Shown here piece after piece: positions 23,801 through 38,255 of a stretch of DNA of 54,332 nt. Origin of the DNA: a virus (taxonomy: Duplodnaviria > Caudoviricetes). Position numbers and translations under genes: made by a program. Where the stretch lies: IMG/VR virus record IMGVR_UViG_3300011115_000623, positions 1 to 54,332 of that record, one strand, 5' to 3'. How positions within the stretch are numbered: the first letter of the stretch is position 1; each line of letters opens with the position of its first letter. The notes under the pieces were generated by a model. It saw nothing but the letters and a program-made list of their open reading frames with translations, was not told the origin of the DNA and ran no database searches.

Positions 23801-25039
23801 ATGGCCGGATTGATCTGGGCCGGTATCGGCCAGGGGATTGCCAACGCTGGCGCAACAGCGGCCAACATCGGCGTGCGTGACTACGAGATGCGCGAAGCCG
23901 CGCGCTTGCGGCGCGAAGACAAGGAAGAAGATCGCGCTTGGCGTGAAGAGCAAAAAGACATTGACCGTGATCGCCAGGATGAGCGCGACAAGCTCTACCG
24001 CAAAACCGTTGAGCAGCAGATCGCTGCCGGTAAAGGCAGCGGCGGGATGAAGGGTGTCGACCCGGCGGACATTGCGCCAGGTGGTAGATTGGCCCACCTT
24101 ATTGCGGGTGAGGCGGGCATGACCGCACCCGACTACGAAAAGCAAATTAACGCCATGAAGACCGGCGATATGTCGGGTTATGAAACTATCGTTGGCGCTA
24201 GAGCTGGCGAAGAAGGCCCAACCCCAATCAAAGCCTTACCCGAAGGATTCAAAAAAGAATTTGATGCAAAAGCCAAGATGCTTAGCCAGTTGGCCATGAC
24301 CTACGTGACGGGCAGCGAGGCAAAGGGCATCGCTGAAGCAAAGCAAATCGGTTTGGTCACCAACGCCATGGAAGGTGCTCAAGCAGGCGGCGATGTCACA
24401 AAAGCAGCTCAGCTTGCCGCAATCAGCAAGGGACATGTTCCATACGCAGGCGACTCCAACGTGACGCGCAACGTGTTGACTGGAGACACATCAACCACCG
24501 CCGTGGGCACCGCGACGATTAGCGAGAAAGGCGCTTTGGCAAAACAAGCCGAAGCAGGCGCAACGGAAAACGCAGCGCAAGCTAAAGCCGCCGACGCCCT
24601 GGCTGACAAGCACAAAGAAGAAATCACCAAGATCAGAGAAGACGTCAAGAAAATCCAAGCCGAAATTCCTGAAGTTAACGCGAGAACGAAAAAGATTCAA
24701 GCTGAAACTGGCCAGGTTGGGAAAGACGGCGGCAACGACAAAACGCAAGAGCGCCTTAGCACAGTCATCAATTCTGCGAATGCGACTTTGAAATCGCTTG
24801 AAGATAACGGCCCTGGAAAAACGCCCGAGTCCAAAGCACTCTGGGAACGCCAACGCGCTGATGCCATCGCCTTGCGTGATCAAGCAATCAGTTTGCAAAA
24901 GGAAGCCCTGGGCGCTCGCGGTACGCCACCGGCAGCGGATACGAGCGGACGTAAAGTGGGCGATACTCAAATTGTCCAAGCTGGACCAAACAAAGGCAAG
25001 ACCGCTGTTTGGGATGGCAAAGGCTGGAAGCTCCAATAA
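23801..25039 (+). CDS. Probable ejection protein (charged coiled coil, C-terminal WDGKGW)
   Basis: AAGGAG RBS; composition and position. Confidence 0.75.
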   Translation: MAGLIWAGIGQGIANAGATAANIGVRDYEMREAARLRREDKEEDRAWREEQKDIDRDRQDERDKLYRKTVEQQIAAGKGSGGMKGVDPADIAPGGRLAHLIAGEAGMTAPDYEKQINAMKTGDMSGYETIVGARAGEEGPTPIKALPEGFKKEFDAKAKMLSQLAMTYVTGSEAKGIAEAKQIGLVTNAMEGAQAGGDVTKAAQLAAISKGHVPYAGDSNVTRNVLTGDTSTTAVGTATISEKGALAKQAEAGATENAAQAKAADALADKHKEEITKIREDVKKIQAEIPEVNARTKKIQAETGQVGKDGGNDKTQERLSTVINSANATLKSLEDNGPGKTPESKALWERQRADAIALRDQAISLQKEALGARGTPPAADTSGRKVGDTQIVQAGPNKGKTAVWDGKGWKLQ

Positions 25040-25041
25040 CT

Positions 25042-28000
25042 ATGGCGGCTTATCTTTCGGATGACGAAGTCTTTGGCGGCTCAACATATTTGTCGGACGC
25101 CGAAGTATTCGGTGGCCGAAAAGATGTAACACCGTTCAAGGTATCCATCGGCGACCAGGCCGCGCGCGACCAGGAGTCGCTTGGCATCTTGCAACGCGAA
25201 CGCGAGAAAGCCCAGCGCCTGGCAGCCGATGCGCAGAAGTCAGGCAATCAGGCTGATGCCGTTCGCTACGCAAACGACCAAGCGGCCCTTGACCGCGAGA
25301 TCGCAGCCAGGGCCAAGACCGCTGGCGTGGAAGCGCCTGCCCCGGCTGCGGTGGTAGCCCCGGCGCGTAGCACCCTCACCCTACCCACTCGACCTGGGCA
25401 AGAGCAGTCAGGCGTTGTTGCGCCCGAGCCCAGCGTCCTTGCACCGCAAGGCAAAGCCCCGCGCATGACGACTGGCACAGCGGCACTTAAATCCAACGAG
25501 TACGTACCGGTAGCTGCCACCATTAGGGGCGAGCCCGCCCCGCCTTTGATTGAGCGCCGGGGAGCTCCGGTGAGCGAAGAACGGTTCCGCGAATTGCAAC
25601 GAGCCTATGACGCGGCAACACCGGCTCAGCGGGTTGCCCTGATACAGCGTCCTGGCTTTGAGGGATCGGTGTTCAAAAGCATCGACGACCAATACCGCGC
25701 AATGGAAAAAGCCGCCGTGACTACGCCGTCGGCCAGGCTGCTGGACACCAGGCGCGAAGCCCGGCGCGTTAAGTTGGCCGTAGAGAGCGGCATGGACGTT
25801 GACGCAGCCGACGCGCTGGCCGCGCAGCAAGCCTTGCAAGGAAGGCCGACAACCCGACTGGCCCAGGCAACCGCGTCCGACTTTGACTTTGAAACGAAGA
25901 ACGAGTTTGCCCGCCCCAGTACGCAAGTAGACATGCGCCAAAAAGGCGGCATCATCTACCGTGCAAAACCAAGCAACGCTGACGAATTGGCAGCAGCGGC
26001 AAAAGCTATTGGCGGCAAGGTAAAGGGTCAGTTTGAATCGGCAGCAGCCGGTGCTTGGCAAATGGTCGGCGACCTGATCTCTGCAACAGGCGACTTTGTT
26101 GGGTCGCCCGGCACGGAGCGATTCGGAGACCGGCTGTCCGCTGGAAACGCCCAGCAACAAAAACAAGCCCAAGCCCGTTTGGCCGCAATTGGAGACAACC
26201 CTAACGCGGCTTTGAATTTTGTCGAGTCAGGCGTGTCCGGTGCCATCACCAATATCGTGCCTCTGTTCGTGGCTGGCCCGGCCCTTGGGGTAAGCGCCAT
26301 GGTTGGCCAGGTTGTGGCTGATGAGTACGGCGCTGGCAAAGCGGCCGGTCTCAGCGGGCCAGAGGCTTTGGCCAGGGGATCGGCTTTAGGGTTTGCTGAA
26401 TTGGTTGGCGAATTAGCCAGCCTACCAACGCCTTTGGTGAAAGGCTTTAAGCAACTGGTCAAAGGCGTTCCAACTGAACAAATTTTGCCTGAGTTTGCCC
26501 GCTATTTGGTAAAAGAAAACGCGGCAGAGCAAGTTACCAGTTCGCTTAATTTCGCTACCGACAAGTGGGCTCCGTTTGGCATCAAGCCCAATTCAACTTT
26601 GGCAGATTACCTCCAGGCCGCTGCCGATACGTTTTACCAAACCACCGCCCAAACTTTGGTTATGGGAGCCGCCGGAAAATTGGCTGCTCCTGTTGCCCGC
26701 GCGATTAACACGCCCGAGCGCCAGTTTGCCAACGCGTTCCAGGCTGACGTGGACGCGCGCCAGGCAAACGCCGACGCGATTGATTACCTGGCCCGATGGG
26801 AGATGTCTGCCAACAAAGACAAGTTCGCTGGCAACGTGGCCAAAATGGAAAAAGCGGCCCGAGACTACGAAACTCAAATTCTTACGCCTTTGGCCAGAGC
26901 GATGGAGGCATCGCGCGCTTTTGATGTAGAGTACGAAAATCAACTCCGCGCAGCAAGAGACCAGGCAGACCTTCAGCAAGCCTCCACAGCAAGCGATGCG
27001 GCCACGGCTGCGGATAACCTATCCGGCTCCCTCAGCGAGATGCTGGAGCCCGCCCTGACGGGCGAGGCGATCCCTGGCGAAGTGCTGCCACCCGAGCCTG
27101 GTTTGACCGGCGCGGAGATGAGCGCCGCAGCCGACCAGGTTGAGCCTGCCTTTACTGGCGCTGCGGTGCCTGGCGAAGTCCTGGGCACCGAGCCCCCGTT
27201 GTTCGCGCCAGCCCCTGTTGTTACGCCAGCAGTCGAGACTGCTGGCATCAACCCCGATCTGGAACAGCGGATGGGGTTCGACAAGCTGCGCCTGAACGCG
27301 CCGCGCCCGCAAACCATCCAGGGCACACCGGTTGCCAGCTTGAGCGACGACCAGCTTCAAACGATGGCTGGCGACGAAAGCATCGCTCCGATTTCGCGTC
27401 GCAGTGCTGCCATTGAGCTGACTGCGCGCCAGGCCGAGCCGGGTGCATTTACCCAGCGCGCCGCGCCGCAAGCTACCGGGGCACCAAGTACGGTATCCTA
27501 TGCGGGTGAAGCACTTGACACCAGCAGAACCACGTTTGGCCTGGGCGACGCCCAAGGGCGGGTGTCTGACGCCCCTGTTACGGGAGCTGGAGCCACTGCC
27601 AGGGCCGAGCTTCAGGCCCGCCTGGACCGTGCCGCAGCAATCCACGGCGTGGCAGTCCCGACCCTTGCCGCTCCTACTCCAGAAAACGAAGCAGCAGTAA
27701 GCGTCATCGCTGACGCCCTGGGCGGCGTCGGCTTGGCTGACAAGGTCGTGTCCTATACCGACCCCAACGGGGCAGACGGTTTTGAGCTTGGCGGCGTCAT
27801 TGCGGTCAACACCGCCACCCAGAAGGGCGTCGCGCATTCGTCTTTCCATGAGAGCTTCCACGTTGCCGAGCGGATCGCCGCCGCCGATACAGCAGCCGGT
27901 CGCACCAACACACCGGCGCAGCAGTACGTTGCGTCCATTCACAGCTTGTTCGATGAAATGTCGGATGAGGGCAAGCGCGCGTACATCACCAATTTCCTAA

Positions 28001-31000
28001 ACAAGGAAGAGCTGGACGCGATCCAGGACCCGGCTCAGCGCGAAGCCCGCATCAGCCAGATGCTGACCGAGCAGAAGACCCGTTCGGAAATGACGGCCGA
28101 CTTCATGGGCAACCGCGCCACGGACAAGCGTTTCCTGGCCAGCCTGGCCAAGGCAGACCCCAAGGGGTTTGGCGACTTCGTGAAGAAGTGGATTGGCATT
28201 CTGGATGGAATGATCGCGCGCCTACGTGGCGTTCGCAGCCGGTCCAACCTGGAATCGGTCAAGGTTGACAGCTACATCAAAGACTTAAACCGGGCTAAAA
28301 TGGTTGCGCGTGACGCCATGGTAGCCTATCGCAAAGGCACGCTTCAACAGCTTGCGCCCACAACCACGCCCCCGGCGATGAGCCTGCGGCAAGGAGAACG
28401 AAATGCTATCAGCACCGGAAATCAAAACGTACCAGGCGCTCCAGCGACAACTGGACGAGTCACTGGCGAAGATGGGGGCGGTCCGACCCCAGCCTACGGA
28501 ACAGCCCGCCCGGGCGCAATTTCCGTCGTCGGACGCCACTACTCAACGTCCCCCCGTCAATCGTTAAGCGGAGCGTTTTATGGCCAAGGACTCAAAGGCG
28601 CAGAGCGTGATCGCCTGGACCGTAGCACTGATCCTCGACTTAAAAACCGCATCTACTTCTATGTTGACCAGGGCGCAGGTGTTCGCCCCGAATCCGGCGT
28701 CGGCGGGTACGCCCACGAAACCCGGCTGGACAACATCTACGATCCACAGACTCGAATCGTAAAACCGCAGGCGGATTTCAACGCCTTCGAGTCAGCAGTC
28801 ATCAACGCCGGTTTCGACGGCTACATCGCACCTTTTGGCAACAACCAGGCAGCAGTCGTCCTGCTTGGCCAAAAGCACAAAGCTGTTCCAGTCAAGGCCA
28901 TAGGCCAGCCCGCACCGGCAGCACCTGTCGAAAGCGCAGCTCCAAGCGTACTCAAGAAGGGGCTCATGTCGAAAGAGCTGAGCCAGATCGACACGTCCAA
29001 CATCCCGGGTGCGCGCCTGCGCGCGGGCAGCCTGGAGATTCCAGCAGAGCAACGCGACGCAGCCAACGCGGAGCTGGAGCGGATCGGTAGCGAAGTGCGC
29101 TTTGCCAAGAAGGAAAAGGTCACCCCGGCGCGAGTGATGTTTGAGGTTGCGCCAGACCCCAATGACGCTGCTTTGAAAGCCCGCTGGGACGCCGTGCCTT
29201 TTGAGCGCAAGGTGGAAATTAGCCAAAGCGTTGCCAAGCAAATCATGCCCCAGGTCTTTAAGCTGGCCGAGGTACGCGCCAGGCTTACCACGCAGCTTGG
29301 CGGTTATCTCGAAGACACCAGCCCGTCTTTTGCGGCTATCGTGCCCAGCACGGCGTCAGCCCAGCAGCTCATGGAGATAGCGCGCATTGGCGGTTTTGGC
29401 CTAACCCAAGACAGCATGATGGTGCTGGATTCCAAACCCTTTGAGGGCTCATCCCCAACCGGCTTGATCACAATCACGTTGCCGGAAAACATGAAAGACC
29501 AAGACGCAGTTCATTCGGTTTATCAAGCTGCGCGGCAGGTTTCTCCGAAAGACATCACCGGCCACACAACTGTTGGCCGGGAAATGGTTTTGGCTGTGCC
29601 GTCTGATAAGATGGCCGACCTCACTTCAAAAATTGTGGGCGTGTTAGACGCGCGCCCGGAAAATTTCAACATTGATTCAGCGAACGGCCACATGGCCTTT
29701 GTGTCCAAAGAGGAGTACGGCTATGGTAGTGAAGCAAGGAAACCAACCCCCGAGTTTTCTGCAAAACGGGCAGAAGCTAATCGCATCCGCGAAGAAGCCA
29801 GCGCCGCACTCGAACGCGAAATCGCAACCTACGAAGGCACCGGCGGGCGCAAAATAGACACAGGCGTTTATCGCAACGTCGCTGACTCTTTCGGGTTATC
29901 CCAGGCTGAATACGAAGCCAGTGTTCTGCCCCTTATGTTGGGCGGCGTAAAGGACAAAACTTTCCGCGCTCCCAATATTGGCGAAATCCCCGAGATCGTG
30001 CAATGGCTGGATCAGCGCCGGGCCGATACCGGCCTGCCCAAGCTGGACATCAACAAGCCCGAAGACCGCACAACCCTGGCCAAGCTGATGGCGTCCGAAG
30101 CAGTGGCCGCAATTCGTAGCGCGGGCAACGCGGTTGAGTGGTACGACGAAACCGTGGCCAAGACTTTGCGCATCATGGCTGTCAAGTACCCAGAGCTGGA
30201 CACAGACCCGAACGCACGAAACGCTTTCTTGATTGCCGTAGCCATATCGTCTCAAACAATGGACGTTGAGGCCAACCTGAAATACGCTTCTGAGCAATAC
30301 GAACAGTTCCGCACAACAGGCAAATTCCCAGAGGTTGGCAAAGGCAAGTCAGCCCCGCCAATGGCCAAGAATTTTGCTTTGGCCAATGACGTGTTGGCTG
30401 ATATGGGGCCGGACTTACTGCTTCGCTTTTTACGAAGCGAATTTACCAAACGTGAGCTGGAAACTATTGGCTTCCCTATTGGTGGCGAGTCGATGGACGA
30501 AAAGGTGCTTGGCTCTGCCATCTTCGGCCCCAAAATTGGGTTTGGTTTTTACAGCAACCTTTCGGGCAACTTTGAGCCCATTACCATGGACATGTGGTTC
30601 ATGCGCACTGTCGGCCGTCTGGCCGGGACTTTGCCAGCGTTTGACCCCGTGCTGTTCCCCAAGCAAGTGGCCAAGCTGCGTGCGGCTTTGGCCGAGACTG
30701 GAGATGCGGGGCGTGGGGTGTACGCCGATCAGTTTGACCCGGCTGCCGTCCAGGCTGCGATGGAGACGGACGAAGGCGCAATCGCCCTGGCGCGCCAGGT
30801 AAACAGCTTGCACAACCGCCAGTTCATCAAGGAACGGGCCGCATTCGACTCAGGAACGCGAATCAAGACCGCCCTGGTGGGTGCTTCCGGTAGCATCATT
30901 AAATCGGCTGACAAGCCCACAGATGCCCCTGGCAGCGGCGGCGAACGCCAGCGGCTGCGCGACGTGGTTCGCCAGATGGTTGCCATGGTGGAGGAGCAGG

Positions 31001-31482
31001 TGGGCAAGCGCGTGCCACCGGCGGCTTTGCAAGCCTTGATCTGGTATCCTGAACAAGAGTTGTATAAAAAGTTGGGCGCTGGCCTTCGCGTGACTAGCCA
31101 AGACTACGCGGGTGCGGCAGAATCACTACTTACGAAAGAAGGTTTTGATGGAAAACAATTACGCACAGCAGCCGAATCTGGACCAGGACCGGCACGACAA
31201 GTGGCTGGAAAGCCGGTCGCGCGAGCAGATCAGCAGGCTGGCCAAGCGGGCAGGCCAACTGGCGCGCTCCAAGGAGCAGAGCGGGAAACTTTCATCGCCG
31301 CCCGCACTCCCCTCGAAACAATCTTCGACGGACTAAACAAACGCGGCCTGGCCAAGACACGCGCAGAAGCTGCGATTGAATTGCGCCCGGACGGCGCGCA
31401 AATAAAATACGTCCACGAAAACTTCCTCGACATACTGTCCGAGCTGGATGACTCCGGCCTGGTTAAGATTAACTGCAAATAA
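25042..31482 (+). CDS. Giant polyvalent virion protein 1: zincin-like HExxH, ART-like, unknown and HhH-glycosylase-like domains
   Basis: About 2146 aa; HESFH...EMTAD (27847 onward); HYS...IYFY...GFDGY (about 28520-28900); WY...SSQ...N...GPKIG.FY.NL...TMD.WFMR...LQALIW (about 30060-31110). Confidence 0.8.
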   Translation: MAAYLSDDEVFGGSTYLSDAEVFGGRKDVTPFKVSIGDQAARDQESLGILQREREKAQRLAADAQKSGNQADAVRYANDQAALDREIAARAKTAGVEAPAPAAVVAPARSTLTLPTRPGQEQSGVVAPEPSVLAPQGKAPRMTTGTAALKSNEYVPVAATIRGEPAPPLIERRGAPVSEERFRELQRAYDAATPAQRVALIQRPGFEGSVFKSIDDQYRAMEKAAVTTPSARLLDTRREARRVKLAVESGMDVDAADALAAQQALQGRPTTRLAQATASDFDFETKNEFARPSTQVDMRQKGGIIYRAKPSNADELAAAAKAIGGKVKGQFESAAAGAWQMVGDLISATGDFVGSPGTERFGDRLSAGNAQQQKQAQARLAAIGDNPNAALNFVESGVSGAITNIVPLFVAGPALGVSAMVGQVVADEYGAGKAAGLSGPEALARGSALGFAELVGELASLPTPLVKGFKQLVKGVPTEQILPEFARYLVKENAAEQVTSSLNFATDKWAPFGIKPNSTLADYLQAAADTFYQTTAQTLVMGAAGKLAAPVARAINTPERQFANAFQADVDARQANADAIDYLARWEMSANKDKFAGNVAKMEKAARDYETQILTPLARAMEASRAFDVEYENQLRAARDQADLQQASTASDAATAADNLSGSLSEMLEPALTGEAIPGEVLPPEPGLTGAEMSAAADQVEPAFTGAAVPGEVLGTEPPLFAPAPVVTPAVETAGINPDLEQRMGFDKLRLNAPRPQTIQGTPVASLSDDQLQTMAGDESIAPISRRSAAIELTARQAEPGAFTQRAAPQATGAPSTVSYAGEALDTSRTTFGLGDAQGRVSDAPVTGAGATARAELQARLDRAAAIHGVAVPTLAAPTPENEAAVSVIADALGGVGLADKVVSYTDPNGADGFELGGVIAVNTATQKGVAHSSFHESFHVAERIAAADTAAGRTNTPAQQYVASIHSLFDEMSDEGKRAYITNFLNKEELDAIQDPAQREARISQMLTEQKTRSEMTADFMGNRATDKRFLASLAKADPKGFGDFVKKWIGILDGMIARLRGVRSRSNLESVKVDSYIKDLNRAKMVARDAMVAYRKGTLQQLAPTTTPPAMSLRQGERNAISTGNQNVPGAPATTGRVTGEDGGGPTPAYGTARPGAISVVGRHYSTSPRQSLSGAFYGQGLKGAERDRLDRSTDPRLKNRIYFYVDQGAGVRPESGVGGYAHETRLDNIYDPQTRIVKPQADFNAFESAVINAGFDGYIAPFGNNQAAVVLLGQKHKAVPVKAIGQPAPAAPVESAAPSVLKKGLMSKELSQIDTSNIPGARLRAGSLEIPAEQRDAANAELERIGSEVRFAKKEKVTPARVMFEVAPDPNDAALKARWDAVPFERKVEISQSVAKQIMPQVFKLAEVRARLTTQLGGYLEDTSPSFAAIVPSTASAQQLMEIARIGGFGLTQDSMMVLDSKPFEGSSPTGLITITLPENMKDQDAVHSVYQAARQVSPKDITGHTTVGREMVLAVPSDKMADLTSKIVGVLDARPENFNIDSANGHMAFVSKEEYGYGSEARKPTPEFSAKRAEANRIREEASAALEREIATYEGTGGRKIDTGVYRNVADSFGLSQAEYEASVLPLMLGGVKDKTFRAPNIGEIPEIVQWLDQRRADTGLPKLDINKPEDRTTLAKLMASEAVAAIRSAGNAVEWYDETVAKTLRIMAVKYPELDTDPNARNAFLIAVAISSQTMDVEANLKYASEQYEQFRTTGKFPEVGKGKSAPPMAKNFALANDVLADMGPDLLLRFLRSEFTKRELETIGFPIGGESMDEKVLGSAIFGPKIGFGFYSNLSGNFEPITMDMWFMRTVGRLAGTLPAFDPVLFPKQVAKLRAALAETGDAGRGVYADQFDPAAVQAAMETDEGAIALARQVNSLHNRQFIKERAAFDSGTRIKTALVGASGSIIKSADKPTDAPGSGGERQRLRDVVRQMVAMVEEQVGKRVPPAALQALIWYPEQELYKKLGAGLRVTSQDYAGAAESLLTKEGFDGKQLRTAAESGPGPARQVAGKPVARADQQAGQAGRPTGALQGAERETFIAARTPLETIFDGLNKRGLAKTRAEAAIELRPDGAQIKYVHENFLDILSELDDSGLVKINCK
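28403..28567 (+). CDS. Nested +1-frame ORF, 54 aa (MLSAPEIKTYQALQRQLDESLAKMG...)
   Basis: AAGGAG 6 nt upstream of ATG; lies in a low-complexity linker of the host gene. Confidence 0.5.
   Translation: MLSAPEIKTYQALQRQLDESLAKMGAVRPQPTEQPARAQFPSSDATTQRPPVNR
29723..29857 (+). CDS. Nested +1-frame ORF, 44 aa (MVVKQGNQPPSFLQNGQKLIASAK...)
   Basis: GAGGAG 7 nt upstream of ATG; at a domain boundary. Confidence 0.35.
   Translation: MVVKQGNQPPSFLQNGQKLIASAKKPAPHSNAKSQPTKAPAGAK
31148..31336 (+). CDS. Nested +1-frame ORF, 62 aa (MENNYAQQPNLDQDRHDKWLESRSREQISRLAKRAGQLAR...)
   Basis: GAAGG 5 nt upstream of ATG; directly after the glycosylase-like domain; host frame here is G/A/Q/P linker. Confidence 0.5.
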   Translation: MENNYAQQPNLDQDRHDKWLESRSREQISRLAKRAGQLARSKEQSGKLSSPPALPSKQSSTD

Positions 31483-31491
31483 GGACCCGCC

Positions 31492-31983
31492 ATGTTGCCC
31501 AAAATGATCATCTCCGCCGACTGCAAGAAGATGCTGGACGAGGCGGTCCATTCCGAGCTTTACGCATCCAACCTGTACAAGCACATCGCCAATCAGCTTC
31601 AGCGCCTGGGCTACTTTGGCGCGTCAAAGTTCTTCCTGAACGAAAGCGCAGACGAGCTGAAGCACTACCAGCTCCACGTTGAATTCCAGAACGATGTCGG
31701 CACCGTGGCCAAGGTGCCCATGATCGAAGCGATGAACGAAACCATCGAGACCTTCAGCGACGCAATTGAAACCGGTTACGAGACCGAGCTGGAGCTACTT
31801 AACAACTACCAGTCCTGGTACGCTGAAGCGGCAGACGATCCCATTGTGCAGCAGTTTTTGCTCCAGTTCCTGGAGATTCAGCGGCGCAGCGTGGGCGAGT
31901 ACGGCGACCTGCTGGCGCGCATCCAGCTTGTCGATCAAGACAAAGCTGGCATGCTACTGATCGACCAAGAATTGGGCGGTTAA
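31492..31983 (+). CDS. Ferritin-like protein
   Basis: E22, Y29, E55, H58, E99 and Q130 match the spacing of FtnA ferroxidase ligands E17/Y24/E50/H53/E94/Q127; 163 aa; AAGGA RBS. Confidence 0.88.
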   Translation: MLPKMIISADCKKMLDEAVHSELYASNLYKHIANQLQRLGYFGASKFFLNESADELKHYQLHVEFQNDVGTVAKVPMIEAMNETIETFSDAIETGYETELELLNNYQSWYAEAADDPIVQQFLLQFLEIQRRSVGEYGDLLARIQLVDQDKAGMLLIDQELGG

Positions 31984-31986
31984 ACC

Positions 31987-34900
31987 ATGGCCGATTGCAC
32001 GTATCGGTTCACCGACGCGGATGGCAAACAGCGTGTCATAAAAGGCCAAGCCGCGTTCAAAGCGTACCTGGCCAGTGGTGGCCTTCAGCACCTGATGCCC
32101 AGCGCCAAGGTGGCGTTCAGCGGCAAGCAGACCGAGACCCCGGAATTCAAGCGTTGGTTCGGCGACAGCAAAGTGGTGGACGCCGAAGGCAAACCCCTGG
32201 TGGTTTACCACGGCAGCGTTGCCCGAGGCGTGACGGTGTTTGATACTACCCGCGTTACCACCCGCAGCGCCAAGGGCGACTTGGCTGGCACCTACTTTAC
32301 AAGCAGCCCAGAAGCGGCTTACGGTTATACGCGGGACTTTGGCGCAAGCCTGCCCTTGACTGGATCGAAGGCAGGTACTAAGGCTCCAAGGGGTGACGTT
32401 ACCCAGGCTTACCTCAAGATTGAGAACCCGCTCAACACCACCGCCGCAATCAAAAAATATCGCAAGCAGGGCCTGTCGTTTGGGGACGCCAAGCGCAAGG
32501 CCCTTGAGGCCCTCACGCCTGAGCATGACGGCGTCATCTTTGACGGCGACAAACTAAACCCACCCGAGTACGTGGTGTTCAAGCCCACCCAGATCAAATC
32601 CGCCACCGACAACAACGGCCAGTTCGACGCGACCAACCCGGACATCCGGTTCAGCCCCAGGCAAGACCTCAAGCCGGAAGACGTGCTCAAGCCGGAAACC
32701 GTCATTAAGGCCCGAGAGGCCATTGCCAAGTACAAGAAAGCCGAGCCGCCTGACCCGTTGTCAGCGGCGGATCGCGCGCACGGCGAAGACCTGCTGAAGC
32801 CTTTGTTCGCAGCGGCAGAGCGCAACAAGCCCGCGTTCGACACGACCCTGGACAAGATCGCCGAAAGCGTCGGCGGCTACGCCAAGAAGCCTGGTATCAA
32901 GAAGCCGTTCCGCGCAGTCACCAAGCTGGCCATCGAGAACGGTTACGACCCGGCCACCATGAAAGACCTGTTGCGAGGCACTGTCGTGGTGGAGACGCCG
33001 GAAGACGCGCAGCGGGTGATTGACGAGATCGGCAAGGTCTACAAGTTCGACCGGATCAAGAACCGACTGTCGATTGACCTGACCGACAACAAGGGCGAGA
33101 CCCTACAAGGCAAGCCGTTGTCGACCGGGTACCAAGACGTGCTGACCAACGTGGTGTTGGATGACGGGACTGTTGCCGAAATTCAGATCAGCACGCCAGG
33201 GATGCTGGCTGCTAAGAACCTTGGCCATGAGATTTACGCGTTTGAGCGCGAGATGCCACCCAGCCCGGTCAAGGCCAAGATGGTCGACATCCAGAAGCAG
33301 ATTTACGCCGAAGGCGCAAACTTTGGCCGGGCAACGCAGGCGTCAAACACGCGCTTGAATTCAGCTCTGTCGACCGGGTCGGCTTTCTCACGCACGTCCG
33401 AAGGGTTGCGCGGGGAGGGAGCCGGTAGCCAGGCGGTGGCCGAACGCCAATCTGGCGAGACCGTCACAGGCACTTCGTTCCAGTCGAAGAACATGGTGCC
33501 GGGGGCTAAGGAATCAAAATCGAATTTCATTGGAACCTCCGGCCTGATTATACCTGAAAGCATTGGTATCAACGTCAACCAAGACGGAAAAAACCAGTAC
33601 GCTGACAAGATCGTTGACGGAGAAAAGACACTCGAAACCAGGACGTCGGACTCGCTTCGCCCATACGTCGGCAAGCGGGTCGCCATTGTGCGTACTGGGG
33701 ACGGCCCGGCCAAAGCCATTGGCGCGGTGACGATTGGCGAGCCGATCAAGGTGACGACGCAAAAGCAGTTTGACCAATACCGCGACCAGACCCTGATCCC
33801 CAAGGATTCCAAGTTCGACATCGCGCCTGGCCAGATCAAGTACATGTACCCCTTGGAGAACCCGGTCCGGTACTCTGACGAAAGAGACGTCGGCCAGGGA
33901 ATCGTTGCGCGCAAAGTGATGCTGCCTAGCCGAGCTGGCCAGAAGAACGCAGCGGCCAGCCGGGTGGAGGGCACAAGCGCCGACCGATTCAAACGCACTG
34001 AGCAGCTCCAGCAAGCCGTGGCGGACCTGCAAGAGGGCAAGATCACCAGGACCGAATACAACCGCATGGTGGACGAATTGCGTCCAGTGCAGCCCTATGC
34101 TGCGGTGCCTGCCGTTACGACGCCCAAAGACGCGCGCTATGCCCTGGAGCATGGCCGGGGGCAGAGCCCGGAGAAGGCAGCCAAGTATGGCGTGCCATCC
34201 ATGACTTTGAAGAAAGGCGACTGGGCACAGCTTCGCCTGGACATTCCTTCGTACCAGGAGCACGATGCCTGGGTCGTCAGCGTCCATACGCCGAAGTCAA
34301 CCAACCGCGAAGTGCAGTCTGCATACGACGCTGGCCCGGTGGTGGGGTATGAGTCGGTGGCCGCTCTCACAGACGTGACCTTTGGCATGAACCAGAAGGC
34401 CGCAGCCAAGATCGCTACGGGGTCCGCCAAGGGCACGATTGCCACCATGCTGGGTAAGTGGTCACCCATCAGCAAAGAAGCCGCCAAAGCCCGCGCTGAC
34501 GCCGCGCTGAACGATCCAGCCTGGACCCAGGTCGGCATGGACCCATTCCGCCACAGCTACTTCTACGACCGCGACACCATGCGCCCCGTGCTCAGCGCGG
34601 ACGAAGTGATCCAGGTCGGCCCCCTGGTGCTGGCCAAGAACGTCAAGTTCGGTCTGGACACAGACATCACCGGCGCGCCCATCGCGTTCAGCCAACGCCA
34701 GCCGATGGGCAAAGAGACCGAGGGCTGGCTGCTCAGCCGCGACGCCACCGGCCGCTTCCGCTTCGGCGCGGGTGCCAAGGCTTACCGATACGTGGCAGAC
34801 GTGGCCAACGACGTGCTCGACCGCATAGCCATGAAGCCGGTCAGCCAAGACCTCAAGCGGGCGATGCGCAAGATGCGCATGGAGATCGACAAGGCCCAGA

Positions 34901-37113
34901 ACCTGACAGTCGAAGTGGCCAAGAACATGAAGGACCTGCCAGAGCAGGAGCGCGAGATGGTCAGCGATGTGATCGAAGCCGAGCTGAAGCGCGGTGCCAA
35001 ACCGCCCAAGCGCGTGCTGGAGATCGCGGCCACCATGCAGTCGATCATGTCCGAGCAATCGGCGGAACTGGTGCGCCTGGGCATGCTGACGCCAGAAGCC
35101 GCTGGCCGCTGGGACGGCAAGTACCTGCCTCGCTTCTACGAAAAGACTTTGGGCGATGAGACCAAAGCCTGGATGAAAGCGGTCAAGGGTTTGCTTGGTC
35201 GCAAGAAAACCATGCAGGGTATCGGCGGCAGCAGCCTCAAGGCGCGCGGCATGTTCGAGAGCGTGCCCGTTGCAGACCTGGCTGACTGGGAAGCAAACGG
35301 TTGGGAAGTGCGAGACGACGCATTCGATCCAGCGGTCGATGACCAGATCACGGTCTGGCGCGACTACACGCGCACAGAGCGCGATGACATGGGCGAGATT
35401 CGTGACTCGATGTTCCGCTTCGTTATGGGGTACAACAAGAGCCAACGCGACATCGCACTGGGCCGGTTGTACGAAAACCTGGCCAGCAACTACGCAAGCC
35501 GAATCGAGAAGGAGGGCTACGTGCAAGTGCCATCCACAAACGTGGAAGACACGTATGCCAAGCGTTACGGCAAGCTGGCGGGCAAGTGGGTGCCTAAAGA
35601 AATTCTGGATCAACTGGTGGCGTTCGACACAAGCATGCAGAACGATCTGCTGAAGATGTACCTGAAGGGTCTGTCGATGTGGAAAGAGGGCAAGACCGTC
35701 CTCAACCCAGTCGCTCACGCAAACAACGTGATGTCGAACATCACGATGGCTCACTTCGCTGGCGTGTCTTACTGGGACGGCCACAAGTACGTGGGCGCGA
35801 TCAAAGACCTGGTCAAGAAAGACGCCATGGTGACTGAAGCCCAGGACGCGGGTTTGTTCAGCGGCACGTTCAACCACGCCGAACTGATGGACGCCATGCC
35901 CGAGCAATTGCGCGCGCTGGCCCAGATGTCAGAGAGCAAGGCCAAGAAGGCAGTCGACATGATCTGGAACGCGATGTCTTTGTGGTTGCGCAAACCCCTG
36001 GGCAAAGCATACGCTGCCGAGGATGACTTCTTCCGATACATGATTTACCGCGATGCGCGCAACAAGGGTCTAAGCCCGGACGACGCTGTCGACTACGCGC
36101 TCCAGTACATGTTCTCTTACGACGACATGCCAAAGGGCGCACGGATTATTCGGGACGTGCCCATCGGTTTGCCTTTCTTTGCGTACACGTATAACGTCGT
36201 GCCCGCCCTGGCCAAAACCGCACTGGAGCAGCCGTGGCGTTATGCCGCCCCAGCGGTGGCTTTGTACACAATCAACGCGGCTATGTACGCAATGGCTGCC
36301 AGCCTGGGTGGCGGTGATGACGAAGACTGGTGGACCGTGATCCAGCGTTACCTGACCGACCCGGAATTCCGGGACCGGGCCAAGAAGATGGAAGAGCAGG
36401 AGCGCAAGAACTTGCCGCCTTGGCAAAAGGGCGAGAGCTTGATGCTGGGCACCGAGAAGACGATCCGCCTGGGTATGGACGACATGACCAACCTGCCCGT
36501 GTTCCTGGACGTCAGCCGGATATTCCCAGGCGGCGACATCTTCGACGCACACAACAATGCAGGCGGCATGCCGATCATTGCTCCGCTCATGCCCAACAGC
36601 CCGATCCTCACAACCATCGCGGCGATTGCGTACAACGAAGACACGTTCCGTGGACGGGACATCACCGACAAGACGGACACCAGCGCGGAAGCTGCCGCAA
36701 AACGAGCAGCGTTTATGTGGCGTCAGATGACACCGGCAATTGCCATCGGCAACACTCACTTTGAGCGCGCCATGAACGTGATCGCCAACGTCACGGGCGA
36801 GGTCGTCAAGACGCCCCTGGCCGACTACACCGGCATTGGCAAAGACGGCGTGCCGATCATGCCCGGCTACGCTGCTATGCAGACGGTCGGTATCAAGGCC
36901 CGACCAATCGACCTGGCTGCATCGGAGAAGTTTGCAAAGGCCGAGCAAAAGCGCATGGTGACCGAGGTCAACATTAAGATGAGCAGTTTGCGCAAGCAGC
37001 GCAACAAGGGCTCAATCAGCGACGAGACCGCCGAGGCCGAACTGGAAAAGCTGCGCGAGAAGAAGCGCAACCTCAAGCAAGGTCTGACCCTGGAAGGCGA
37101 AGAGAAAGACTAG
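31987..37113 (+). CDS. Giant polyvalent virion protein 2: ART-PolyVal + RelA/SpoT-like synthetase + ASCH + unknown + LPD38-like C-terminus
   Basis: FKRWFGDSKVVD..GKPLVVYHG...YFT...DGVI...YVVF.PTQIKSA; IKK..R...K...KDLLRG...GYQD....EIQI...K..GH.IY; YADKIVDGEKTLETR. Confidence 0.85.
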   Translation: MADCTYRFTDADGKQRVIKGQAAFKAYLASGGLQHLMPSAKVAFSGKQTETPEFKRWFGDSKVVDAEGKPLVVYHGSVARGVTVFDTTRVTTRSAKGDLAGTYFTSSPEAAYGYTRDFGASLPLTGSKAGTKAPRGDVTQAYLKIENPLNTTAAIKKYRKQGLSFGDAKRKALEALTPEHDGVIFDGDKLNPPEYVVFKPTQIKSATDNNGQFDATNPDIRFSPRQDLKPEDVLKPETVIKAREAIAKYKKAEPPDPLSAADRAHGEDLLKPLFAAAERNKPAFDTTLDKIAESVGGYAKKPGIKKPFRAVTKLAIENGYDPATMKDLLRGTVVVETPEDAQRVIDEIGKVYKFDRIKNRLSIDLTDNKGETLQGKPLSTGYQDVLTNVVLDDGTVAEIQISTPGMLAAKNLGHEIYAFEREMPPSPVKAKMVDIQKQIYAEGANFGRATQASNTRLNSALSTGSAFSRTSEGLRGEGAGSQAVAERQSGETVTGTSFQSKNMVPGAKESKSNFIGTSGLIIPESIGINVNQDGKNQYADKIVDGEKTLETRTSDSLRPYVGKRVAIVRTGDGPAKAIGAVTIGEPIKVTTQKQFDQYRDQTLIPKDSKFDIAPGQIKYMYPLENPVRYSDERDVGQGIVARKVMLPSRAGQKNAAASRVEGTSADRFKRTEQLQQAVADLQEGKITRTEYNRMVDELRPVQPYAAVPAVTTPKDARYALEHGRGQSPEKAAKYGVPSMTLKKGDWAQLRLDIPSYQEHDAWVVSVHTPKSTNREVQSAYDAGPVVGYESVAALTDVTFGMNQKAAAKIATGSAKGTIATMLGKWSPISKEAAKARADAALNDPAWTQVGMDPFRHSYFYDRDTMRPVLSADEVIQVGPLVLAKNVKFGLDTDITGAPIAFSQRQPMGKETEGWLLSRDATGRFRFGAGAKAYRYVADVANDVLDRIAMKPVSQDLKRAMRKMRMEIDKAQNLTVEVAKNMKDLPEQEREMVSDVIEAELKRGAKPPKRVLEIAATMQSIMSEQSAELVRLGMLTPEAAGRWDGKYLPRFYEKTLGDETKAWMKAVKGLLGRKKTMQGIGGSSLKARGMFESVPVADLADWEANGWEVRDDAFDPAVDDQITVWRDYTRTERDDMGEIRDSMFRFVMGYNKSQRDIALGRLYENLASNYASRIEKEGYVQVPSTNVEDTYAKRYGKLAGKWVPKEILDQLVAFDTSMQNDLLKMYLKGLSMWKEGKTVLNPVAHANNVMSNITMAHFAGVSYWDGHKYVGAIKDLVKKDAMVTEAQDAGLFSGTFNHAELMDAMPEQLRALAQMSESKAKKAVDMIWNAMSLWLRKPLGKAYAAEDDFFRYMIYRDARNKGLSPDDAVDYALQYMFSYDDMPKGARIIRDVPIGLPFFAYTYNVVPALAKTALEQPWRYAAPAVALYTINAAMYAMAASLGGGDDEDWWTVIQRYLTDPEFRDRAKKMEEQERKNLPPWQKGESLMLGTEKTIRLGMDDMTNLPVFLDVSRIFPGGDIFDAHNNAGGMPIIAPLMPNSPILTTIAAIAYNEDTFRGRDITDKTDTSAEAAAKRAAFMWRQMTPAIAIGNTHFERAMNVIANVTGEVVKTPLADYTGIGKDGVPIMPGYAAMQTVGIKARPIDLAASEKFAKAEQKRMVTEVNIKMSSLRKQRNKGSISDETAEAELEKLREKKRNLKQGLTLEGEEKD
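33303..33530 (-). CDS. Nested antisense gene, 75 aa (MKFDFDSLAPGTMFFDWNEVPVTVSPDW...); candidate immunity protein for the RelA/SpoT-like domain
   Basis: GGAGG 5 nt before ATG; perfect TATAAT 6 nt further upstream; occupies exactly the linker between the synthetase and ASCH domains. Confidence 0.7.
   Translation of the reverse strand: MKFDFDSLAPGTMFFDWNEVPVTVSPDWRSATAWLPAPSPRNPSDVREKADPVDRAEFKRVFDACVARPKFAPSA
33536..33578 (-). promoter_or_regulatory. Internal antisense promoter/RBS for the nested gene
   Basis: TATAAT (33547-33552), GGAGG (33536-33540); candidate -35 boxes TTGATA and TTGACG are at non-ideal 14- and 20-nt spacing. Confidence 0.5.
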
Positions 37114-37340
37114 CCCGGCGGCGGGCAGTTTTCTGGGATCGGAACAGCCACCCACACGGCTGCGTACTGGCCCCTGTTGGGTCCCATCCATCGGTCGATG
37201 TAGCAGTCGGCCATCTTGACCAGGCCGCGTCTGACGCTGTCTTCATCCAAGCCGGTGCGATCCGCCAAGTCGGGCACGGTGAGCCCGTCCGGGTTGCGCA
37301 GCAAATGGGCGCGGATGGTGGGGTGCTGTGATACGGTCAT
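37110..37340 (-). CDS. Small winged-HTH-like protein
   Basis: DGLTVPDLADRTGLDEDSVRRGL; YIDRW. Confidence 0.7.
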   Translation of the reverse strand: MTVSQHPTIRAHLLRNPDGLTVPDLADRTGLDEDSVRRGLVKMADCYIDRWMGPNRGQYAAVWVAVPIPENCPPPG

Positions 37341-37708
37341 GCGTATTCCCGTCTTGGCTTGGCTAGGTTAAAAACAAAGTTCATGGTGTTGTGCGCAGCA
37401 CGCTTCTTGTCGCTGCGCTTGCGGTTGTCCCGGCGGTTGGCCTGCCTGTTGGGTTTCTTCGCGTCAGGCAGATCACCGACGGCATAGATTGCCCTGGGAT
37501 AGCGACGCCCGTGCTCGCTGTCGTGCGTGTAGCCTGAGATGTAAATGCGCTGGGGTATCTTCGGCCCGCCCTTGGCCAGGCGAGTGATGACAGCAGAGCA
37601 GTTCATTCGGTCCATCCCAATGTGAAAACAGATTTCGCTGCGCGTCATTGGCCCGTAGGTTTCAAGCGTGTGAAGGATACGGGCGACTGTGGAGCCGTAG
37701 GGTTTCAC
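37337..37708 (-). CDS. HTH-like DNA-binding protein
   Basis: GPMTRSEICFHIG; coupled to neighbours. Confidence 0.7.
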   Translation of the reverse strand: MKPYGSTVARILHTLETYGPMTRSEICFHIGMDRMNCSAVITRLAKGGPKIPQRIYISGYTHDSEHGRRYPRAIYAVGDLPDAKKPNRQANRRDNRKRSDKKRAAHNTMNFVFNLAKPRREYA

Positions 37709-38046
37709 GCGTTCTGGTCCTTCAACAGCTTCTCAATCGCTTCGGCAAACTGCTTAAACCCCGGCGGAAGCCTGGCGGTTTTGGGGTCTATAAATTTCAA
37801 CGCCATCAGCCGTTGCTCATCGGTCAGCCCGCGCCAGGGTTTGCGGTAGTCCTGGATGTCGTCGTCATCGTCCAACAAGGCCCGCATCTTTTTGTTTTTG
37901 TTTTCTTGCTCGGCCAAATACTCGGGTGTTAGCACGGAAGACGGTGGCCAACCCAACTTGTCCGCAGCCATCTGCCGCTTGGCCGGGAAGCCCCCGCCCT
38001 GCCTGCGCTCCATCTCTTCCCAGGCTTCATCCTCTGGTGTTTTCAT
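37705..38046 (-). CDS. Hypothetical protein (MKTPEDEAW...WRGLTDEQ...FAEAIEKLLK)
   Basis: ATG at 38046 overlaps the upstream stop; common phage C-terminal motif. Confidence 0.7.
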   Translation of the reverse strand: MKTPEDEAWEEMERRQGGGFPAKRQMAADKLGWPPSSVLTPEYLAEQENKNKKMRALLDDDDDIQDYRKPWRGLTDEQRLMALKFIDPKTARLPPGFKQFAEAIEKLLKDQNA

Positions 38047-38255
38047 AACATTCCATTCTTGAGTGTGATGCAGGTGCCTTCGATCTGGGTGATCATCTGT
38101 CCGCCTTTGAGGGCCATCTTTTGCATGTGTTCTTTTTGGGCATCTAGCGCGGCGCGGCACTGCTGTTCGGACTTGAACCAGGTTTGGGCTTGCATAAATT
38201 CACAATTGCCGTTCATACAAAGGAAAAGCACGGGAACAAAAATAACTTGGATCAT
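38043..38255 (-). CDS. Small Cys-containing, possibly exported protein
   Basis: ATGA-coupled start at 38255; hydrophobic N-terminus. Confidence 0.65.
   Translation of the reverse strand: MIQVIFVPVLFLCMNGNCEFMQAQTWFKSEQQCRAALDAQKEHMQKMALKGGQMITQIEGTCITLKNGML

Follow-up and report, generated by a model that had tools for sequence, protein, structure and literature searches.

Can the spacer between two effector domains of a giant phage protein carry, on the opposite strand, a second protein-coding gene, and if it does, what might that gene do for the toxin-like domain beside it? These questions are raised by a locus in the window analysed here, a stretch of 54,332 bp from a virus of the Caudoviricetes (IMG/VR record IMGVR_UViG_3300011115_000623) that constitutes a complete phage genome with direct terminal repeats. 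At the end of its structural operon, on the plus strand, lies a gene for a 1708-aa polyvalent virion or ejection protein (31987..37113; hereafter the host gene), which includes a synthetase-like domain of the Tas1/Apk type (RelA/SpoT superfamily). Within the linker that follows this domain, the minus strand holds an open reading frame (ORF) of 75 codons (33303..33530). We conclude that this ORF is very probably a real nested protein-coding gene. That its product confers immunity to the synthetase-like domain is plausible, at slightly less than an even chance, and the complete statement, a real gene together with an immunity function, likewise falls just short of even.

Start signals and position of the antisense ORF

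The minus-strand ORF begins with an ATG at 33530-33528 and ends with a TAA at 33305-33303. Five nucleotides (ttcca) before the ATG stands a Shine-Dalgarno sequence, GGAGG (33536..33540, minus strand), and six nucleotides (caggcc) before this a -10-like hexamer, TATAAT (33547..33552, minus strand), which is a candidate promoter element without a proper -35. A first-pass annotation of the window, made from its letters alone, had reported this order of signals and the 75-aa ORF behind it; both were found as described, and the translation is identical. The ORF covers host residues 439-515, between the RelA/SpoT-like match, which ends near residue 414, and a match to the ASCH domain that starts at residue 536, in agreement with the earlier placement in the linker between the two domains; its stop falls within the last helix of the synthetase-like domain. 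Two further details of that annotation also hold: the -10 box is made by the host-frame codons ATT ATA, and the -35 spacing is imperfect, with TTGATA at a 14-nt spacer and TTGACG at a 20-nt spacer. Of the 280 codons for Ile in 12 well-supported genes of the phage, only 19 are ATA, and this codon is used for the -10 box in every aligned sequence.

Conservation among relatives

Relatives of the locus were collected by scanning viral contigs, one genome collection and metagenome contigs, which gave 61 loci, many of them from the same contigs. All 20 first-round loci in which the linker occurs have an antisense frame of 70-77 aa that opens with ATG, and so do nine out of 10 additional loci (70-86 aa), the remaining one being cut by the contig end. 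De-duplication left 25 unique copies, and comparison of these shows that the ATG and a frame of 70-86 aa are kept in 25/25, that the hexamer is TATAAT in 16/25 and TATACT in the other 9/25, and that GGAGG lies 4-9 nt from the ATG in 18/25. In the comparison of homologues that the first-pass annotation had proposed, the ORF, the ATG and TATA[AC]T are thus conserved throughout, and GGAGG in part. Identity at third codon positions (p3) between lineages is 0.43-0.65, so that synonymous sites are well diverged and recent shared ancestry is excluded as the source of this conservation. The base before the AT of the start is invariably C, although the sense residue there varies (F, V, S, A or N).

The constancy of the -10-like hexamer in 25/25 copies, using the rare ATA codon, could also be accounted for if the minus-strand signals served an antisense RNA that regulates the giant late gene, in timing or dosage, with the ORF incidental. 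We regard this as very improbable, as it would leave the protein-like substitutions, the predicted fold and the stand-alone protein homologues described below unexplained; a search of 33000-33900 against Rfam returned no family at E ≤ 1.

The antisense ORF is always directly behind the synthetase domain, and the pair stays intact while ASCH or ART modules come and go. In domain-shuffled relatives the module boundary lies just outside the -10 box, and the junction string, ATT ATA NCT GAA A, is conserved in its nucleotides whichever kind of neighbour adjoins it. The suggestion that a separate antisense gene travels with the synthetase domain as a cassette is strengthened by the copies and the module boundary, as well as by the selection analysis and the stand-alone homologues presented in the following sections.

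Some relatives depart from this pattern. In two loci (L018:557-781 and L019:2357-2581) the synthetase domain is 44-48% identical and the linker is different, yet a 75-aa antisense ORF follows GGAGG-N5-ATG, with TATAAT further upstream; the family hidden Markov model (HMM) fails to detect these ORFs, and P0022 and P0025 are of the same type. A 1221-bp contig (L030) has a host-frame TGA in the linker with the antisense ORF intact (E to Q there), and in L036 the host frame shifts close to the antisense ORF's 3' end; the stop and the shift could each stem from misassembly or mark a broken giant gene. In L037 and L038, antisense ORFs (82 and 78 aa) that follow the synthetase domain were considered and rejected, having no clear Shine-Dalgarno sequence and no HMM match.

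Substitutions in the linker and the two reading frames

The third codon positions of the antisense and host frames coincide. Conservation of the sense peptide therefore entails conservation of the antisense peptide as well, and neither plain conservation nor a dip in the synonymous rate can decide whether the ORF is a shadow of the host gene, because the wobble positions are shared; no such dip was seen in the ORF body, and none is expected in this frame geometry. The alternative to be weighed here is that there is no gene, and that the ORF, its ATG and GGAGG are shadows of a conserved sense peptide or of a recombination site, favoured by the coinciding wobble positions and a GC-rich frame. 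Besides the coupling of the two readings, this alternative draws on the frequency of long antisense ORFs inside the same gene (254, 257, 481 and 292 aa) in a genome of ~59% G+C, and on the antisense frame itself being open far upstream in the window, to 34067 (254 aa). It also draws on the junction string being common to loci with different neighbours, as in a recombination linker, and on synonymous conservation that peaks at the module junction (33526-33560, observed/expected 1.26-1.38), with peaks of 1.2-1.3 elsewhere. We consider it unlikely in view of the comparisons that follow. The upstream extension of the frame is not conserved, several relatives having in-frame stops 12-21 codons before the ATG.

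Fitch counts of changes, taken per site at sense positions 1, 2 and 3, were 1.36, 0.79 and 3.20 in the synthetase domain, and 0.78, 0.79 and 3.03 in the ORF. The extra constraint in the ORF thus affects sense position 1, equivalent to position 2 of the antisense codon (Fisher p = 0.010), and the linker under the ORF, supposed to be filler, is more constrained than the enzyme domain. To compare selection in both frames, as the first-pass annotation had asked, we regressed single-base changes at positions 1 and 2 among relatives on the BLOSUM62 score of each frame. With 19 sequences, the sense score was predictive in the domain (p = 1.9 × 10−12) and the antisense score was not (p = 0.72), whereas in the ORF the antisense score was predictive (p = 0.011) and the sense score was not (p = 0.12).

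The regression was then applied in 68 sliding windows over 32740-35373 with 24 sequences. In the 56 sliding windows clear of the ORF, the sense χ2 was 4.5-37 and the antisense χ2 at most 2.6; in those over the ORF, the sense χ2 was 0.2-2.6 and the antisense χ2 3.4-5.4, and the sense signal is lost nowhere else. For the exact ORF, the antisense χ2 was 6.6 (p = 0.010) and the sense term was not significant (p = 0.165), as opposed to control stretches, where the sense term had p ≤ 10−10 and the antisense term was about 0. Position-2 changes outnumber position-1 changes in five sliding windows of the ORF (by 4-13) and in one other (by 1). The seven substitution matrices used concur on the ORF (p = 0.006-0.078 for the antisense score, and p = 0.17-0.52 for the sense score), and a stratified permutation test on the ORF gave p = 0.005. 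Substitutions hence track the antisense rather than the sense protein in the ORF stretch only, which argues against a shadow of the sense peptide. Four other long minus-strand ORFs lie in the giant gene (31954-32526, 33514-34287, 34462-35907 and 36070-36948; 190, 257, 481 and 292 aa), and the sliding-window test over 33600-35400 detected no antisense selection signal over those located there.

Openness of the antisense frame was examined in the same 24 sequences. The stretch 33319-33580 (261 nt) is the longest that is free of antisense stops in all of them; the next-longest is 117 nt in the same frame, with 180 and 93 nt in the two other antisense frames. Given the sense protein and codon usage, the probability of an open frame is 0.26-0.72 per sequence, and the product is 7 × 10−4 over ten lineages if these are independent. 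The 75-aa protein contains no Tyr, His or Gln. Only codons for these three residues can place stops in the host frame, so that a protein with none of them cannot close it. Together, Tyr, His and Gln make up 1 of the 290 residues in four embedded copies vs. 17 of 283 in verified stand-alone domains (Fisher p = 5 × 10−5), and 9.1% in the phage's own genes. This depletion, which is specific to the embedded copies, is what true dual coding predicts, and it is a further point against the absence of a gene.

Predicted fold of the two products

AlphaFold2 modelling of the antisense product from a 34-sequence alignment gave a predicted local distance difference test score (pLDDT) of 75.5 and a predicted template modelling score (pTM) of 0.62, with four strands and a C-terminal helix. 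The control, the sense reading of the same DNA (33304..33579, plus strand; 22 sequences), is an S/G/T/A-rich spacer for which pLDDT was 57.8 and pTM 0.10, with no secondary structure. An antisense peptide predicted to fold opposite a sense peptide predicted to be disordered is not what a mere shadow would lead one to expect. The description of the host frame as S/G/T-rich filler accordingly stands as far as predicted disorder is concerned, but does not fit the level of constraint, which exceeds that of the enzyme domain.

A family beyond the linker

By its sequence, the 75-aa protein belongs to an undescribed small-domain family of mobile elements, with the motif [FL]PxG[TS]xFF[DN][VW]x[GD]VP[VI]...AW.P...[AE][ED]F. 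A profile search of 1.84 billion representative proteins gave 13 matches at E ≤ 1 × 10−3, which include proteins of 81 and 77 aa, two tandem two-copy proteins (152 and 133 aa), a 258-aa protein with an N-terminal domain and a 220-aa protein with a C-terminal domain; the 220-aa form comprises several diverged clusters of equal length in which both halves are conserved. Two candidates from this search, P0019 and P0030, resemble unrelated repeat proteins and were set aside. Searches of Pfam and PHROGs with the 75-aa protein and its relatives identified no family, comparison of the 75-aa protein and the family to PDB sequences gave nothing below E = 0.1, and the ESM Atlas gave no usable match. Scans of viral contigs with P0026 and P0020 yielded no locus, and INPHARED contained no match to P0020, the 220-aa relative.

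Embedded members also occur at a distance. Two further giant proteins, one encoded on a viral contig of 56 kb (L062) and the other on a contig from a Burkholderiales metagenome-assembled genome (MAG; L066), have a synthetase-like domain followed by a low-complexity linker, whose opposite strand in each case encodes a divergent family member with the frame offset seen in the window. Their start signals are AGGAGG-N7-ATG and TATACT-N6-GGAGG-N8-ATG, respectively. In L062 the GGAGG is coded by the sense residues L-P-P, vs. T-S in the window, and its retention despite different sense residues is difficult to attribute to a conserved sense peptide. The Burkholderiales MAG with a close relative of the window gene has, in addition, a second giant ORF (L082; G001:C267), a 2986-aa open frame with its own synthetase-like domain and embedded family member.

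In 401 Burkholderiales genomes, we identified members that are ordinary genes, of 116 aa right after a tyrosine integrase, with an AlpA-like gene nearby (L067), of 218 aa after an integrase (L071), and of 153 aa in tandem form (L068). In L068 and L071 all opposite-strand frames contain stops, and none spans the gene. An HMM built from the window's clade alone matches the L067 gene with E = 1.5 × 10−6 among 1134 ORFs. The existence of ordinary, non-embedded homologues that can be found in this way is hard to reconcile with the absence of a gene, and it makes the usual shadow-ORF objection answerable here.

A different arrangement was noted in two marine scaffolds (L039:640-1300 and L040), where a gene ends right after a distant synthetase domain (26% identical) and a 77-aa stand-alone gene (P0018), preceded by a 91-aa lysine-rich gene, follows five bases on, on the opposite strand; by eye, the 91-aa product resembles ribbon-helix-helix (RHH) proteins. 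P0018 was considered as the ancestral arrangement and rejected, its homology to the family being unsupported (hhalign E = 0.02, probability 2%; HMM E = 2.2).

Several observations weigh against a nested gene. A sigma-70 consensus scan of 32800-38200 found 0 promoters, neither -35 candidate having a spacer of 16-18 nt. The seven copies that do not have GGAGG possess only GGTGA or GGAGA beside the ATG; a 9-nt deletion in these copies brings TATACT to just 7 nt before the ATG, where a leaderless start is possible. The key selection p values, ~0.005-0.03 (0.057-0.078 with two of the seven matrices), are moderate and come from related sequences. Clade-only HMMs at depth gave 18.6 and 16.9 bits for the antisense reading vs. 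10.6 and 14.6 for the sense reading, both frames thus scoring. Two of the five AlphaFold2 models of the antisense product were near pLDDT 50, and the antisense alignment was deeper than the sense alignment (34 vs. 22 rows).

If the gene is translated, it would provide a clear example of antisense coding, within another phage gene, for a protein that is conserved, foldable and part of a family, and the linkers of polyvalent effectors would be places that can hide genes discarded by annotation pipelines. A mutation that leaves the host protein unaltered can abolish the antisense start, which offers an experimental handle.

The synthetase-like domain and a possible immunity function

The segment of the host gene that aligns to Tas1 (32788..33210, plus strand) had been called RelA/SpoT-like. 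The call is supported by a profile of the relatives, whose sole match among PDB sequences is Tas1 (6ox6_A, E = 1.1 × 10−7), and by a single-sequence search that found the same entry at E = 1.3 × 10−4; it is weaker than had been implied in that the Pfam RelA_SpoT match (E = 5 × 10−4, 20.8 bits) is below the 27-bit gathering cutoff. The alignment pairs D-L-x-R, G-Y and E-I-Q of both sequences, which we take to be the catalytic motifs of the synthetase. DNA and protein searches of INPHARED phages with the domain-linker-ASCH stretch gave no match.

Under the mechanism that we propose, the same DNA would be read twice, on the plus strand as a disordered S/G/T-rich tether that needs only to stay open, and on the minus strand as a small folded protein with four predicted strands and a helix. 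Translation would start at the conserved ATG behind GGAGG, on a transcript that we infer to begin on the minus strand close to the TATA[AC]T hexamer, or else to arise by antisense read-through; given the poor -35, it is the -10 hexamer by itself that suggests expression by the host RNA polymerase. A look-up of sequencing runs listed four, from a single study and with small shares of the stretch, none of them on record as RNA. The synthetase domain and the small gene would move as one cassette during domain shuffling between phages. The small protein would bind the neighbouring synthetase domain and hold it inactive, and as an immunity protein it would thereby protect the producing cell, or cells carrying the element; orphan copies in bacterial islands would protect against injected synthetase effectors.

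The small gene abuts a candidate toxin domain and is inherited together with it, as is usual for an immunity gene, its opposite strand being atypical. We prefer the immunity role because a same-strand gene next to an internal toxin domain would end the polyprotein, a difficulty that an antisense gene in the tether solves. Such a protein would be a candidate answer to the question of how phages make a Tas1-like effector in the producing cell without poisoning phage production. An immunity gene placed antisense in the tether would further allow the pair to be spliced in frame into any giant virion protein, which would remain unbroken while immunity is made separately. That the locus represents such a portable toxin-immunity cassette for polyproteins, with the immunity gene antisense in the tether after the toxin domain, is a tentative proposal to which we give roughly one chance in three; if it is true, the stand-alone copies beside integrases would be orphan immunity genes against phage-injected synthetase effectors.

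The points that weigh against immunity concern both partners. The Pfam match of the synthetase-like domain is below its curated cutoff, and the toxicity of the domain is only putative. Four stand-alone loci have no such synthetase within ~10 kb, and none was detected at E ≤ 0.01 in three of the genomes with stand-alone copies. The family profile did not retrieve Tis1 from PDB sequences at E ≤ 10. Foldseek comparison of the model to the PDB gave no match at E ≤ 0.001 (E > 0.1 throughout, with weak PWWP/Tudor/SH3-like rows), and the best hit of the wide fold search VIA had Z = 3.0.

These same results are compatible with a real gene of a new family whose job is unrelated to the synthetase domain, such as an anti-defence protein, a regulator or an exclusion factor, and whose place in the linker would simply reflect that no part of a giant gene other than a disordered spacer tolerates a second reading. 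This has a substantial probability, below one half. The separation of the stand-alone members from any synthetase fits it, as do their neighbours, which are integrases, an AlpA-like regulator, a serine recombinase and an AAA_25 protein, and the missing likeness of the family to Tis1 or to any known antitoxin fold; tandem and fused forms (P0021, P0027 and the 220-aa family) would be unusual for a dedicated one-to-one immunity protein. It does not account for the finding that every embedded member seen, in the window's clade (25 unique copies) as in L062 and L066, immediately follows a Tas1-like domain and no other. A six-frame HMM search of all loci found members only with the synthetase domain, the later stand-alone ones aside, and no antisense signal appears at the other linkers of the host gene. 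Orphan immunity genes in mobile elements are, moreover, a known pattern according to the accessible part of one source (PMC10470768), so that stand-alone copies can be accommodated by an immunity function as well.

Comparison to known systems

In Tas1-Tis1 (Apk1) and the phage system MuF-Apk2/BcTis1/Aph1, as described in the accessible part of PMC10083569, a Tas1-like domain is part of a delivered or virion-associated protein and a small ORF lies immediately 3' of the toxin domain, as in the window. In contrast to Tas1-Tis1, the domain in the window is internal to a polyprotein, and the linker after it contains the whole of the small gene, on the opposite strand. The 75-aa protein also has no detectable likeness to Tis1 in sequence or fold.

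The candidate pair resembles toxSAS modules (FaRel/ATfaRel, and PhRel of phage Phrann) in combining a RelA/SpoT synthetase with a small protein, which is neutralising in toxSAS. Phages also carry toxSAS pairs (PMC7229694, PMC11782079 and PMC12691689), and toxSAS are encoded with cognate immunity or antitoxin proteins (PMC12691689). Those modules consist of two adjacent same-strand genes, and the excerpts of the sources available to us do not describe antisense nesting for them.

ORFs inside opposite-strand genes are reported from E. coli O157:H7 (PMC9927249) and P. aeruginosa (olg1/olg2; PMC8850804), and the available parts of these papers give the embedded genes their own translation signals and purifying selection, as found for the window gene. 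Whereas olg1/olg2 are called evolutionarily novel (PMC8850804), the window gene has family members in stand-alone, tandem and fused form and is conserved across deeply divergent phages, in the disordered linker of a modular effector protein. Among the matches listed by a literature search on antisense overlapping genes in bacteriophage, no case in a phage polyprotein was found.

The host gene itself resembles the polyvalent proteins of phages and conjugative elements (PMC5512222), which combine ART-PolyVal and a RelA/SpoT-type domain in one virion-delivered polypeptide. A second gene in a linker is not part of the architecture described in the accessible text of that paper, which contains neither 'antisense' nor 'linker'.

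The giant host gene and its genomic context

The domains of the 1708-aa host protein are arranged in the order ART-PolyVal, Tas1-like synthetase, linker, ASCH-like and L5_gp82-like, followed by a long C-terminal part; like other polyvalent proteins, it thus unites several effector domains in one virion-associated polypeptide. The ART-PolyVal match is strong (Pfam E = 1.5 × 10−22; 81 bits vs. a cutoff of 31.2), the L5_gp82 match is at its cutoff, and the ASCH match is weak (E = 1 × 10−3, below cutoff). The ASCH-like cassette (33592..33891, plus strand) is present or absent among relatives and lies outside the module formed by the synthetase domain and the antisense gene. Comparison of the window (31987-33900) to its relatives (L001-L024, L029 and L052) shows the giant protein to be a mosaic in which 71-352 residues precede the synthetase domain, the ART domain is absent from some members, and the ASCH cassette is present, absent or replaced by other sequence; the N-terminal leader MA(D/N)CTYRFTD is common to all of them.

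The plus strand of the phage genome carries terminase, portal, major head and tail genes in an operon that ends with two giant genes, and minus-strand replication genes converge on these two. The first giant gene, a 2157-aa ORF (25009-31482, plus strand), lies just upstream of the polyvalent gene and matches nothing in Pfam or PHROGs at E ≤ 0.01. A ferritin/rubrerythrin-like gene (31492-31983; Pfam Ferritin, E = 3.8 × 10−15) is situated between these two virion genes. Where the structural operon meets the replication genes, a GC-rich hairpin, GCCCGGCGGCGGGC (37113-37126), is terminator-like on both strands.

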